Shown one piece after another: positions 1,225 through 4,152 of a stretch of 17,622 nucleotides of DNA; position 1 is the stretch's first letter, and the number at the start of each line of letters is the position of its first letter. Below the pieces are notes generated by a model. That model was not told the origin of the DNA, ran no database searches, and was given only the letters and a program-made list of their open reading frames with translations. Position numbers and translations under genes: made by a program. Where the stretch lies: positions 1 to 17,622 of the forward strand of contig JAYVCD010000350.1 of NCBI GenBank assembly GCA_043750125.1, in the 5' to 3' direction. Source of the DNA: Archangiaceae bacterium. Its GTDB lineage: Bacteria > Myxococcota > Myxococcia > Myxococcales > Myxococcaceae.

Positions 1225-1827
1225 CTAAATTTCGCGGCGCGCAGTAATCGCGCGAGCGAGCGTGGCCTGGTCCGCGTACTCGAGATCGCCGCCCATCGGA
1301 ATTCCCTGAGCCAGGCGGGTGACCTTGAGGCCCATCGGCTTGAGCAGGCGGGTGAGGTAGAGCGCGGTGGCTTCGCCTTCGATGTCGGGGTTGGTGGCGA
1401 TGATCACTTCTTCGACCGGAGTGTCCTGCAGTCGCAGCAACAGCTCGCGAATCTTCAATTGCTCGGGGCCGACGCCTTCGAGCGGCGAAAGCACTCCGTG
1501 GAGCACGTGGTAGCGGCCCTTGAATTCGCGGGTCCGCTCGAGAGCCAGCTGGTCGGCGATGCCTTCGACGACACAGACTTGTCGGTCGTCGCGCCGTGCG
1601 TCGGTGCAGTAGCCGCAGACGGTGTCGCGGGGCCCGTCGGTGAGGCTGAAGCAGCGCGGGCACAGTCGGACCTTGTCGACGACCTCGAGCAGGGCGGCGG
1701 CGAGGGCGCGGGCGTAGTCGGGCTGAGAGCGGAGGACATGAAACGCCAGCCGCTGAGCGGTCTTCTCGCCGATGCCCGGCAGCTTCGCCAGTTGCGCCAC
1801 CAGGCGATTGATCGCGTCGGGAGTCAG
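1225..1827 (-). CDS. recR: Recombination mediator RecR
   Basis: HhH motif LPGIGEKTAQRLAF, C4 zinc finger (CPRC...CGYC), Toprim region ATNPDIEGEATA and GIPMGGDLEYAD. It lies downstream of ybaB. Start placed at CTG 1827 (see findings). Confidence 0.96.
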   Translation of the reverse strand: MTPDAINRLVAQLAKLPGIGEKTAQRLAFHVLRSQPDYARALAAALLEVVDKVRLCPRCFSLTDGPRDTVCGYCTDARRDDRQVCVVEGIADQLALERTREFKGRYHVLHGVLSPLEGVGPEQLKIRELLLRLQDTPVEEVIIATNPDIEGEATALYLTRLLKPMGLKVTRLAQGIPMGGDLEYADQATLARAITARREI

Positions 1828-2141
1828 GTGATGCCCGGAATCTTGATCCCGCCGGAGATCTTGCCGAGCTCTTTTTGCATGTGATTCTTGCTGGCAGTGA
1901 GAGCGGCGTTGACTGCGGCGGTGACGAGGTCTTCGAGCATCGCGATGTCGTTCGAATCGACGAGCGCCTTGTCGATTTTGATCGTCTTGAGCTCCTGGAC
2001 CCCGTTGGCGACCGCGACCACCCGCCCGTCGCCGGCCTGACCTTCGACCGTTTCGTTCGAGAGCTCGGTCTTCCGGGCCTCGATCTTCTCGGTCAGCTTG
2101 TTGGCCTGCCGAATGAAATAGTTGAGGTCGACACCGGGCAT
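1824..2141 (-). CDS. ybaB: YbaB/EbfC family nucleoid-associated protein
   Basis: 105 aa with VEGQAGDGRVVAVANG and MLEDLVTAAVNAA. Canonical dnaX-ybaB-recR synteny. GGAG lies upstream of the ATG. Confidence 0.95.
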   Translation of the reverse strand: MPGVDLNYFIRQANKLTEKIEARKTELSNETVEGQAGDGRVVAVANGVQELKTIKIDKALVDSNDIAMLEDLVTAAVNAALTASKNHMQKELGKISGGIKIPGIT

Positions 2142-2186: not shown

Positions 2187-2987
2187 TCAGGACTCGTCTT
2201 CCGCAGGTGGCGCAGTCTCTGCGCCCGCGGGCGGCAGGGGGTCGAGCACCTGCACATGCTCCACTTGCCCGCCAAAGTATTTGAGGATGTTCTGCACTGC
2301 CGGATGCACCCGAACCCGGGCATCGATGCTGTGTTCGCGCGCGGTGCGGTCGGACAATTCCTGTTCGGCGATGCTCTTGGGCGCAGCGGCCAGCGAGGCG
2401 TTGGAAGTGTCTTCTTGCAGGCGGGTGGCCTGCCCGAGGGTGGCGGAGATTCGTTTCTCGATCTCGGCCTTCGCACCGCCGAAGACAGTGGCGCGGTGGA
2501 AGCCGGCTTCGGGAGGGAAGGCGATCTTCAGCAGCCCGGGCTCGAACAGGACGACCCGCGCGAACGAGAGCGACTTGCCAAAGCGGGTCGATTCCGCACG
2601 GACGGCTTCGACTGCGCGCCTCCAGACGTCCTGGGAAGTGGGCTCAGGGGGAGGAGGGCCGGGGACTTCTTCCGGAAGGCAATCGCCCGAAGCGCAACCT
2701 TCGGCGGACCCTTCCGGAGCAAACAGCCGTTCGTCGGGGGACGAGGGCTCTTCGGAGATGGGAGGCGCGCGCCGAGGCTCAGCGGGACCCGGTGGCTGCA
2801 CGGGGCTGGGAGGTACGGGAGTGGGGACCGTCCCTCGACTGCTCTCGGGATGAGCGGGGGTGCTCTCGGGATGAGCGGGAGTGACGTGGGGTGGGACGGG
2901 CCCGAGTGTGGGCGGGGCGGGCCTGCTCTCGGGGGGGACCGCCCGGGCCGGGGGAAGAGCGGGGCGCGAAGGCTCAGGAAGGGCGAA
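2187..2987 (-). CDS. dnaX: C-terminal part of DnaX (Pro-rich linker plus tau-like C-terminal domain) in the +1 frame relative to 2974..4152
   Basis: This frame is open from 3047 to the stop at 2187. It encodes a Pro-rich linker, then WRRAVEAV...LKIAFP...HPAVQNILKYFGGQVEHVQV, which resembles tau C-termini. It sits between the dnaX core and ybaB. The 5' boundary is set at the candidate shift codon. Confidence 0.75.
   Translation of the reverse strand, partial: FALPEPSRPALPPARAVPPESRPAPPTLGPVPPHVTPAHPESTPAHPESSRGTVPTPVPPSPVQPPGPAEPRRAPPISEEPSSPDERLFAPEGSAEGCASGDCLPEEVPGPPPPEPTSQDVWRRAVEAVRAESTRFGKSLSFARVVLFEPGLLKIAFPPEAGFHRATVFGGAKAEIEKRISATLGQATRLQEDTSNASLAAAPKSIAEQELSDRTAREHSIDARVRVHPAVQNILKYFGGQVEHVQVLDPLPPAGAETAPPAEDES
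2840..2881. repeat. 21-bp tandem repeat x2, with a partial third copy at 2924-2933
   Basis: tgctctcgggatgagcggggg and tgctctcgggatgagcgggag (1 mismatch). It encodes TPAHPES x2 in the +1 dnaX frame. Confidence 0.9.
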
Positions 2988-4152
2988 AGCTCGGGGTGCC
3001 GGAGCGACCTCCTGGCGCCCCGGCGGACAACTTTTCGATGCGGGCGATCAGCTCGGGGATTGCCGCGGCAGGGGCGAGGTAGACGCCTTTGAGCAAAGTC
3101 ATTTCGAAGGCGAGGCGAGGCTGCGCCGCGCGGGCAATTTCCCAGACACTGCCGTGCACCACATCGAACAGGCGGGCCAGTTGGGCCGCATCTGCCTCGC
3201 GCGCGAGCAGCACGACCGCGTCGCGATCGGTCTCGGCCAGTTCCTCGGGGGCCGCGCCGGTGCTCTTGGCGATGAAGAGGTGCCGCAGCTCGAAGGCCAG
3301 CTCTTCGGCGAGGCGACGCAGATCGACTCCGCGACTCCAGACCTCTTCGATTTTCTGCATCAGCGTCCGCGCGTCCCGCTGAACGAGCGCGGTGGCGAAG
3401 GCGTGAACGAGGGTGCGATCGATGGCGCCGAGCGCTTCGGCGACCTGCTCGTCGGTGGGCGTTTCGCCGCAGGCAGACAACACCTGGTCCAGAAGAGACA
3501 GCGCATCGCGCATGCCGCCTTCCGACTGGCGCACGAGCAAAGACAAGCTGCCGTCGGTGACCTTCACTTTTTCGAGGGCGCAGATCTGCTGCAGCCGCTT
3601 GAGCATCGCGGCCTGGGGAATTCGGCGAAAGTTGTGGCGCTGGCAGCGCGAGAGAATCGTGTCGGGCAGCTTCTGCGGCTCGGTGGTCGCGAAGATGAAC
3701 TTCACGTGGCCGGGCGGCTCTTCGAGCGTCTTGAGCAGTGCATTGAAGGCTGCGCCCGAGAGCATGTGAACTTCGTCGATGATGTAAATCTTGTGGCGAT
3801 CGCGTTGGGGCAGGTACTTCGCGTTCTCGCGAATCTCGCGCACGTTCTCGACGCCATTGTTCGAAGCGCCGTCGATCTCGGCCACGTCGACGCTGATTCC
3901 ATCGCGGATTTCGGTGCAGGCCTGACACACGCCGCAGGGGGTCGCCGTCGGCCCCTTCTCGCAGTTGAGCGCGCGGGCGAGCAGTCGGGCGGCGGTGGTC
4001 TTCCCCGTCCCGCGAGGCCCACAGAACAGGTAGGCGTGGGCGACGCGCCCGAGCTTGATCGCGTTCTCGATCGTGCGGACCACGTGCTCCTGGCCCGTCA
4101 TGTCTTCGAAGGTCTGGGGGCGGTATTTTCGAGCGAGAACCGTGTAGCTCAT
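2974..4152 (-). CDS. dnaX: DNA polymerase III subunit gamma/tau, N-terminal AAA+ core (gamma-sized, 392 aa)
   Basis: MSYTVLARKYRPQTF N-terminus, Walker A GPRGTGKT, zinc module LNC...CGVCQAC, Walker B IIDEVH, SRC motif and GGMRDALSLLDQ. Confidence 0.98.
   Translation of the reverse strand: MSYTVLARKYRPQTFEDMTGQEHVVRTIENAIKLGRVAHAYLFCGPRGTGKTTAARLLARALNCEKGPTATPCGVCQACTEIRDGISVDVAEIDGASNNGVENVREIRENAKYLPQRDRHKIYIIDEVHMLSGAAFNALLKTLEEPPGHVKFIFATTEPQKLPDTILSRCQRHNFRRIPQAAMLKRLQQICALEKVKVTDGSLSLLVRQSEGGMRDALSLLDQVLSACGETPTDEQVAEALGAIDRTLVHAFATALVQRDARTLMQKIEEVWSRGVDLRRLAEELAFELRHLFIAKSTGAAPEELAETDRDAVVLLAREADAAQLARLFDVVHGSVWEIARAAQPRLAFEMTLLKGVYLAPAAAIPELIARIEKLSAGAPGGRSGTPSFRPS
3007..3013 (-). 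promoter_or_regulatory. Internal Shine-Dalgarno-like sequence AGGAGGT near the dnaX frame junction
   Basis: A perfect 7-nt anti-SD complement with no ATG/GTG/TTG at initiation distance downstream. It lies 18 nt upstream of the UUU_CGC codons. Confidence 0.45.

Follow-up and report, generated by a model that had tools for sequence, protein, structure and literature searches.

A dnaX gene in two reading frames

The window analysed here, a contig of 17,622 nucleotides (nt) from a myxobacterial draft genome (JAYVCD010000350.1 in assembly GCA_043750125.1), carries on its minus strand a dnaX gene that is divided between two overlapping reading frames. The zero frame runs from the ATG at 4152 to the TGA at 2976-2974 and specifies a product of 392 amino acids (aa), in which Pfam identified DNA_pol3_delta2 (E 4e-42), DNAX_ATPase_lid, and DNA_pol3_gamma3 (E 4e-19). 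The +1 frame stays open between 3047 and 2187 (286 codons and a stop), and the conceptual product that passes from the first frame into the second is 654 aa long. As detailed below, the tau subunit is probably made by programmed +1 ribosomal frameshifting at a UUU_C sequence in the overlap, and gamma is best read as the default product and tau as the shifted product, both in the window and in the whole family; this reading is drawn from sequence comparison.

A first-pass annotation of the same DNA had described the 392-aa zero frame ending at 2974 and a tau-like C-terminal part (C part) in the +1 frame between 3047 and 2187, both of which were confirmed by the list of open reading frames (ORFs) and by Pfam. 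The overlap sequence that it quoted is also exact, with GGAGGU at 3012-3007, UUU at 2988-2986, CGC at 2985-2983, and the stop at 2976-2974. The features of the locus are listed in Table 1.

Table 1. Features of the dnaX locus in the window
Feature	Position	Strand	Basis or remark
dnaX zero-frame ORF, 392 aa, clamp-loader domains I-III, gamma-like putative default product	2974..4152	-	ORF list and Pfam
5' hairpin, GCCGGGGCGCC-AGGA-GG(U)CGCUCCGGC	2998..3024	-	fold and covariation
GGAGGU, Shine-Dalgarno-like hexamer in the loop and 3' side of the hairpin, 18 nt before UUU	3007..3012	-	
Spacer from hairpin to shift site; length fixed, sequence varying, last base C invariant	2989..2997	-	alignment A1, columns 31-42
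Candidate shift site UUU_CGC	2983..2988	-	invariant TTT-CG; UUU 2988-2986, CGC 2985-2983
Zero-frame stop UGA ending gamma, three codons past UUU	2974..2976	-	
+1-frame continuation, 265 codons and stop: Pro-rich linker, Cys motif, tau C-terminal domain	2187..2984	-	translation, alignment of 21 relatives
Conserved linker motif ERLFAPEGSAEGCASGDCLPE	2670..2732	-	alignment A2
tau C-terminal domain (DnaX_C / DUF3646-like)	2235..2624	-	Pfam, weak in the window
ybaB/ebfC, next gene in the dnaX-ybaB-recR operon	1824..2141	-	Pfam YbaB_DNA_bd, E 1.4e-24
recR	1225..1824	-	Pfam Toprim_4, RecR_HhH, RecR_C

To describe the distribution of this arrangement, the window's own family is designated f1 and the other families of the class f2-f10, among which f4 is the sister family. 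A protein search in 40 related genomes recovered dnaX from 39 of them. In 21 of the 22 f1 loci obtained in this way, the zero frame reaches its stop after 392-406 codons and the +1 frame holds the C part, and the 22nd locus gave no C-part match. None of the family relatives examined has the continuous dnaX ORF that the first-pass annotation had considered as a counter-indication. When the 3' half of the cassette described in the next section was used as a search pattern, it was found in 196 of 208 family genomes, among them 155 of the 160 of high quality, and in 48 of 51 genera, as a rule with a single match per genome (the count of 196 takes in the unpublished genome G148, on which no claim rests); a reversed-pattern control was almost always zero in family genomes. 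The short zero frame is present in all 20 of the single-contig family genomes. Twelve family genomes lack the pattern. Five of these were inspected, of which four have no assembled dnaX and one (G206) contains a variant with the hairpin, CCC_UUU_CUG, and the C part in the +1 frame; the remaining seven have completeness values of 66-82%. The closest public proteins are named Myxococcaceae, Archangium, Stigmatella, Corallococcus, Hyalangium, and Myxococcus, and the best 120 public matches to the N-terminal part are all 381-412 aa in length. The recurrence of the break together with the cassette is far beyond chance.

A 1-nt assembly error or a pseudogenized dnaX could also split the gene, and the source genome is indeed a draft (460 contigs, 89% complete). 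However, the family-wide recurrence of the same break, single-contig genomes included, and a C-part frame that is open, conserved, and furnished with invariant residues in a single-copy gene leave such an artefact or decay with a negligible probability. The check for an indel that the first-pass annotation had proposed was made on Logan contigs: those of runs X1 (2901-3048) and X2 (2931-3048) span the site and contain no differing letter and no indel. These contigs derive from one study and are not raw reads, and minor variants could go undetected in them; in X3 and X4, coverage of the cassette is limited to 2972-3027. Since runs X1 and X2 may represent the sample behind the genome assembly, the contigs add little beyond the conservation. 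That the frame break is real and conserved can nevertheless be regarded as virtually certain.

The C part matched the Pfam family DUF3646 ('DNA polymerase III gamma and tau subunits C terminal') weakly in the window (E 0.0011). Among the +1-frame products of 21 relatives, DnaX_C was detected in nine (best E 5e-6) and DUF3646 in four, and no solved structure was matched by sequence in a profile search with the C part. In an alignment of these 21 products (A2), a variable linker rich in proline and alanine, a conserved motif, ERLFAPEGSAEGCASGECLPE, and a conserved domain of approximately 150 aa with invariant residues were recognized. A counterpart of the motif, SPEGCATGECLPD, is found within the continuous dnaX ORF of the neighbouring family f2 (locus L025), which is an unbroken frame of 634 codons with the order GG-T-S...F, Pro-rich linker, and SPEGCATGECLPD. 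The order GG(R/T)S...F, Pro-rich linker, and GCA(S/T)GECLP motif is common to the two frames of f1 and to L025, indicating that the two frames of the window, taken together, follow the same order as an unbroken tau. In studied bacteria, the linker and C-terminal domain of tau tie the clamp loader to the polymerase and the helicase, a role for which the clamp-loader part and the C-terminal part must be covalently joined.

In public records and in the output of gene callers, the C part appears as an ORF in its own right, 165-360 aa long and labelled 'hypothetical protein' or 'gamma/tau'. Such a listing would suit a split gene that yields gamma and a separate C-part polypeptide, translated from its own start (e.g. 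GTG 2801) or after re-initiation and perhaps associating with gamma non-covalently; every relative has some ATG, GTG, or TTG in the +1 frame, and GGAGG is located upstream. Yet the first of these start codons lies 25-280 nt past the UUU, neither its place nor its kind is conserved, and none of the 24 loci compared has a Shine-Dalgarno (SD) sequence ahead of it. The GGAGGU hexamer is at least 27 nt from the stop, and no start codon is present 5-13 nt after it. The frame is already kept open ahead of these start codons: the 3,282 nt from UUU to the first starts contain no stop, whereas about 13 would be expected from the stop density of the other frames (~1.2% of codons), and between UUU and the end of the +1 frame, the 24 loci contain 0 stops in the +1 frame and 70 and 86 in the other two. 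In addition, a separate C part would lack the covalent link required for the role of tau, would leave the conserved UUU, its preceding base, and the hairpin unexplained, and would deprive the -1 heptamers of two sister genera (see below) of meaning. A split gene is accordingly an unlikely explanation, and the independent start that the first-pass annotation had allowed for is absent as a conserved feature. What is observed is an overlapping downstream ORF in the +1 frame without a conserved start of its own, the arrangement characteristic of programmed +1 frameshifting. A protein search for a joined long form of the C part (>500 aa) found none and returned one unrelated-looking match of 518 aa, which is weak evidence. 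A protein search of the source genome also found no second dnaX copy, the other matches being only to a weak paralogue, so that no other source of tau is available in this genome.

The linker shows several further peculiarities. In the window, 2840-2857 and 2861-2878 (minus strand) form a tandem 21-nt duplication, and the peptide TPAHPES occurs twice. The 18-base core of the duplication has 10 exact copies on eight contigs of the genome, a 13-base core has 30 copies, and the summed depth of metagenome contigs rises ~30-fold at 2816-2869, with many loose ends; the duplication looks like a short dispersed repeat that landed in frame. The linker of L008 (genome G008) contains very long low-complexity N/A/S/G repeats (NANAS, NVGNA, etc.), and its predicted tau is 848 aa long. 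Pfam Pentapeptide_2 was matched by one member of the C-part alignment. Downstream of dnaX, the usual gene order dnaX-ybaB-recR is present in the window.

The UUU_C site

In f1, the last 75 nt before the zero-frame stop contain a cassette consisting of GG(A/G)GCG-YCN-GGAGGU-CGC(U/C)CC, 12 nt, UUU_CG(C/U/A), 1-7 codons, and the stop. We aligned 54 cassettes (alignment A1), of which 24 were picked by protein search alone and 30 by the pattern. C-UUU-CG is invariant in all 54, including the C before UUU (C42), which lies outside the search pattern. The codon that would occupy the ribosomal aminoacyl (A) site is CGC in 48 cassettes, CGU in five, and CGA in one, and never CGG, although CGG makes up 23% of the Arg codons in the dnaX genes; in G206 it is CUG. 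Elsewhere in 22 dnaX genes, UUU was found 27 times vs. 320 times for UUC. Conservation of the frame break, GGAGG, and TTT_CG, synonymous positions included, which the first-pass annotation had left to a comparison of relatives, is family-wide.

Stops in the +1 frame are located 14-20 codons 5' of the UUU in L008, L011, and L023, and together with the zero-frame stop they confine the event to ~50 nt. Within this permitted interval, UUU_C is the only invariant site that is compatible with re-pairing. The source genome contains a single tRNA-Phe gene, with the anticodon GAA. This tRNA forms a G.U wobble pair on UUU and a G-C pair on UUC, and a forward move by one base therefore improves its pairing. 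UUU_Y has been described as prone to +1 shifting in bacteria (PMC5009743).

The mechanism proposed here, from the ribosomal nature of the event to the slip itself, the hairpin's part in it, and its efficiency, is inferred from these features. Ordinary decoding would stop at 2974 and yield the 392-aa gamma-like subunit with domains I-III, and a fraction of the ribosomes would shift by +1 at C_UUU_CGC. The peptidyl-tRNA-Phe in the peptidyl (P) site would re-pair from UUU (2988-2986) to UUC (2987-2985), the next codon would be GCC (2984-2982), and translation of 265 codons would then give a tau of 654 aa, in which the junction peptide of the window reads ...TPSF-ALPEPSR. The hairpin at 3024-2998 may re-fold as UUU reaches the P site and thereby favour forward movement. 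The first-pass annotation had placed the slip at 2988 and estimated tau at ~654 aa, and both agree with the length of the conceptual product and the invariance of UUU_C; the comparative tests likewise lend support to its suggestion that the logic is inverted, with gamma by default and tau through a +1 shift.

The reading frame might instead be changed at another point in the overlap, by a slip at the codon before the stop as in antizyme or prfB genes, by a -2 shift, or by a short hop. The proximity of the stop, which follows within 1-7 codons, would suit a slip of this type because stops stimulate +1 shifts in other systems, and the window does contain UCC_UGA, which the first-pass annotation had likened to the antizyme site. 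However, the codon before the stop varies (GCC, GUC, AGC, UCC, CAC, and others) and cannot re-pair in the +1 frame, and the distance from UUU to the stop is equally variable, the stop being placed one sense codon past CGN in 42 of the 54 relatives and 2-7 codons past it in 12. The antizyme-like proposal is thus unsupported. A -2 shift would leave tRNA-Phe without a re-pairing partner (CCU or NCU), and no other position in the permitted interval is both invariant and slip-compatible. Recoding elsewhere in the overlap is accordingly quite improbable.

Correction at the RNA level, in which RNA polymerase slippage or editing would alter the length of some transcripts, has precedents in dnaX, as in Thermus: transcriptional slippage is reported for this gene in other lineages (PMC3711429, PMC5009743), and two Opitutaceae loci described below carry runs of A10 and A9 just before the stop. 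In the f1 overlap, by contrast, no homopolymer of eight or more bases is present, the only conserved run is UUU, and the spacer varies in sequence; what has been conserved is a codon pair that permits a slip, together with a 5' hairpin, rather than a run. We therefore regard an RNA-level correction as very improbable.

Two further observations concern the codons of the site. ARAGORN identified tRNA-Arg genes with ACG and GCG anticodons in the source genome; CGC could accordingly be read by two tRNAs, which bears on the choice of CGC or CGU over CGG. A second in-frame AAC_UUU_CGC is located at 3625-3630 of the window (minus strand; dnaX codons 175-176), in the ATPase domain and with no hairpin before it. 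It also occurs in one (L007) of 21 relatives inspected and could serve as a natural control for the effect of context.

The upstream hairpin

The arms GG(A/G)GCG and CGC(U/C)CC of the cassette are complementary, and 88% of the cells pair across the 54 sequences. Changes on both sides were found in six of the nine stem pairs. For example, pair 12-28 is AU in 35 sequences, GC in eight, GU in eight, and CG in one, and is unpaired in two; covariation is also seen at pairs 13-27, 14-26, and 9-31. None of 500 shuffles reached the observed covariation scores, and pairing fell to 38-51% when the partner was slid by 1-3 columns. RNAalifold predicted the same stem, extended into the loop so that a tetraloop, NGGA, and a bulged U are left. 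The local fold has an energy of -20.6 kcal/mol in the window and a mean of -16.6 kcal/mol in the 54 relatives, with the core stem included in the minimum-energy fold of 52 of these, and the upstream 27 nt have a mean z of -2.73 relative to shuffles. No 3' stimulator was found in the 60 nt downstream (mean z +0.44, none below -2, with mononucleotide shuffles only), and no Rfam family was matched at E up to 1.

G19, G20, G22, G23, and T24 are invariant in A1, and GGAGGU is present in all 24 loci picked by protein search alone. The Gly codons of the loop are fixed as GGA and GGU, which account for 8 and 12%, respectively, of the Gly codons elsewhere in these genes, indicating selection on the RNA. 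With a covarying 5' hairpin in two families (for f4, see below) and fixed synonymous codons, the region contains a conserved element that, judged from its sequence, is under RNA-level selection and of the kind expected of a stimulator. The first-pass annotation had taken GGAGGU as a free-standing SD sequence; it instead occupies the loop and the 3' side of the covarying hairpin.

The 3' end of the hairpin lies 11-12 nt before UUU. From footprint geometry, the mRNA leaves the ribosome about 11-12 nt before the P-site codon. The 3' end of the hairpin is thus positioned where the RNA exits, and the stem could snap shut at the moment when UUU occupies the P site. It is fairly likely that the hairpin stimulates the shift, and the hairpin is a more likely stimulator than GGAGGU acting as a free SD sequence. 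A more elaborate arrangement can be imagined, in which GGAGG alternates between pairing to 16S rRNA and being locked in the stem. Such a switch could tune how much tau is made relative to gamma in response to the speed of the ribosome, the supply of tRNA-Arg, or the binding of a factor, and the lineage would repeatedly have converted CCCUUUC between +1 and -1 use. This idea is speculative and rather doubtful; if it were true, replisome composition would be regulated at decoding in a developmental bacterium.

Several points weigh against the interpretation of the locus as a hairpin-stimulated +1 frameshift. The 30 of the 54 cassettes that were picked by the pattern are invariant in the pattern columns by construction, and related genomes are non-independent samples. 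A search among sequencing runs listed no RNA run that contains the stretch. Among the Arg codons of these genes, CGC is the most frequent (756 of 1,158), so the slow A-site codon that is usual for +1 sites is missing. The 81-nt fold of the window taken alone is no better than shuffles (z -0.92) and favours another pairing. The GGAGGU hexamer, at 18 nt from UUU, is far from the spacing of prfB-type +1 sites; a 3-nt SD spacing stimulates the +1 shift in prfB, and longer spacings are associated with -1 shifts. Public annotation presents two genes, and it is the N-terminal part that is named gamma/tau. Finally, the engineered hairpins described in PMC6321510 adjoined the ribosomal exit (E) site, whereas 11-12 nt intervene in dnaX.

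Other lineages and known systems

In the sister family f4 (13 genomes, 14 loci), the +1 arrangement was found in eight loci, in the form GA(G/A/C)-GGAGGG-CG(A/G)-CC(G/A), 12 nt, and UUU_CG(C/U/A) or UUU_CCC; another f4 locus is truncated at the end of its contig. Seven of the +1 loci have a stem of CGGYCGCC with GGCGRCCG, in which all cells are paired and which ends 12 nt before UUU. Two of its pairs are compensatory (UA in four and CG in three loci; CG in six and UA in one). Its sequence is unlike that of the f1 stem at an equal distance, suggesting that the structure and the distance have been kept and the sequence has not. In two f4 genera, g35 (L027, L143) and g71 (L150-L152), the N-terminal frame contains C_CCU_UUC and C_CCU_UUU, respectively, and the -1 frame carries the long C-part ORF in each of the five loci. 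These sequences are canonical -1 heptamers formed from the same CCCUUU block in another phase, which indicates that the direction of recoding has changed at least once while recoding itself has been kept. Use of the CCCUUU block for a -1 shift in g35 and g71 fits slippage on the ribosome.

In f2, f3, f5, and f7-f10, the dnaX frames are mostly continuous (575-820 codons), and the three short ones that were checked end at contig ends. In one f7 genome (G266:C5:92748-93912), the ATPase part of dnaX matched as two pieces meeting at query residues 138-141; this split suggests a frame break within the domain and may reflect an assembly error or a broken gene. In other phyla, only two of 74 complete dnaX loci are short, both in metagenome-assembled genomes of Opitutaceae (L073, L085). 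Their zero frames, of 381 and 378 codons, end just past A10 and A9 runs, respectively, and they represent the poly-A two-ORF type known from an earlier report (PMC3711429).

If the proposed frameshift is true, an essential replication gene of a whole, well-studied family, which includes model organisms for development and natural products, depends on +1 frameshifting. The annotation of dnaX would then have to be corrected in hundreds of genomes, in which tau is now missing or is split off as a 'hypothetical protein', and genetic studies of these bacteria in which 'dnaX' is tagged or deleted would be affected. The hairpin would be a natural 5' stimulator of +1 shifting, hitherto shown only with engineered constructs. 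With the slippery block serving for -1 shifts in sister lineages, the choice of direction becomes directly testable, and the conversion of CCCUUUC between +1 and -1 use would, if true, constitute a natural experiment on frameshift direction.

In E. coli, dnaX undergoes a -1 shift at A_AAA_AAG, with an SD sequence 10 nt upstream and a 3' stem-loop, and tau is the default product. The window shares with this system the gene itself, the place just past domain III, the two products, and an SD-like element upstream; it differs in that the logic and the direction are opposite and in that no in-phase heptamer, 3' structure, or Rfam match is present. The +1 shift in prfB, which encodes release factor RF2, takes place at CUU_UGA with an SD sequence 3 nt upstream. 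Like prfB, the dnaX of the window would, as proposed here, be a chromosomal gene of a bacterium that depends on a +1 slip in the P site to yield its full-length product and has a 5' stimulator with an SD-like sequence. In the window, however, the A site would hold a sense codon (CGC), the SD-like sequence lies within a hairpin at a distance of 18 nt, and no autoregulatory logic is evident. We know of few chromosomal bacterial genes that need +1 frameshifting, of which prfB is the classic one, and, to our knowledge, no natural bacterial gene has been reported to use an upstream hairpin for a +1 shift.

A reversed two-ORF organization of dnaX is on record: Antonov et al. (2013; PMC3711429) listed 17 genes that need a -1 change of frame, in 12 of which the site is a poly-A run and was interpreted as transcriptional slippage, and Atkins et al. 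(2016; PMC5009743) also noted this type. As in those genes, the zero frame in the window would give gamma, the stop is just past the candidate shift site, tau would be made by recoding, and the arrangement is unannotated; in contrast to them (-1, mostly poly-A), the window lacks a homopolymer, has a 5' hairpin, and would shift by +1 at UUU_C. The main texts of both papers do not mention myxobacteria, and a literature search, which did not extend to subscription journals, found no paper on a frameshift in myxobacterial dnaX.

The PA-X site of influenza A virus is UCC_UUU_CGU (PMC5009743). It relies on CGU, which is rare in animal cells. The UUU_C tetranucleotide and the presumed re-pairing of tRNA-Phe are common to PA-X, bacterial UUU_Y sites, and the window, and NNC_UUU_CG(C/U) of the window and its relatives is near the PA-X core. 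Shifting at the bacterial UUU_Y sites is low-level or incidental, and PA-X has its rare CGU; in the window, CGC is common and a dedicated hairpin is conserved. In the study of Huang, Cho and Chang (2018; PMC6321510), engineered re-folding hairpins placed upstream stimulated +1 and attenuated -1 shifts on 70S ribosomes in vitro. Those constructs and the window share a GC-rich hairpin 5' of the shift site, but the engineered hairpins adjoin the E site of CUUUGA, whereas the dnaX element is natural and 11-12 nt away. Taken together, the gene, the class of event, and the shift-prone tetranucleotide are known; what is new is the proposed direction of the shift in dnaX, the putative natural stimulator, and the large clade concerned.

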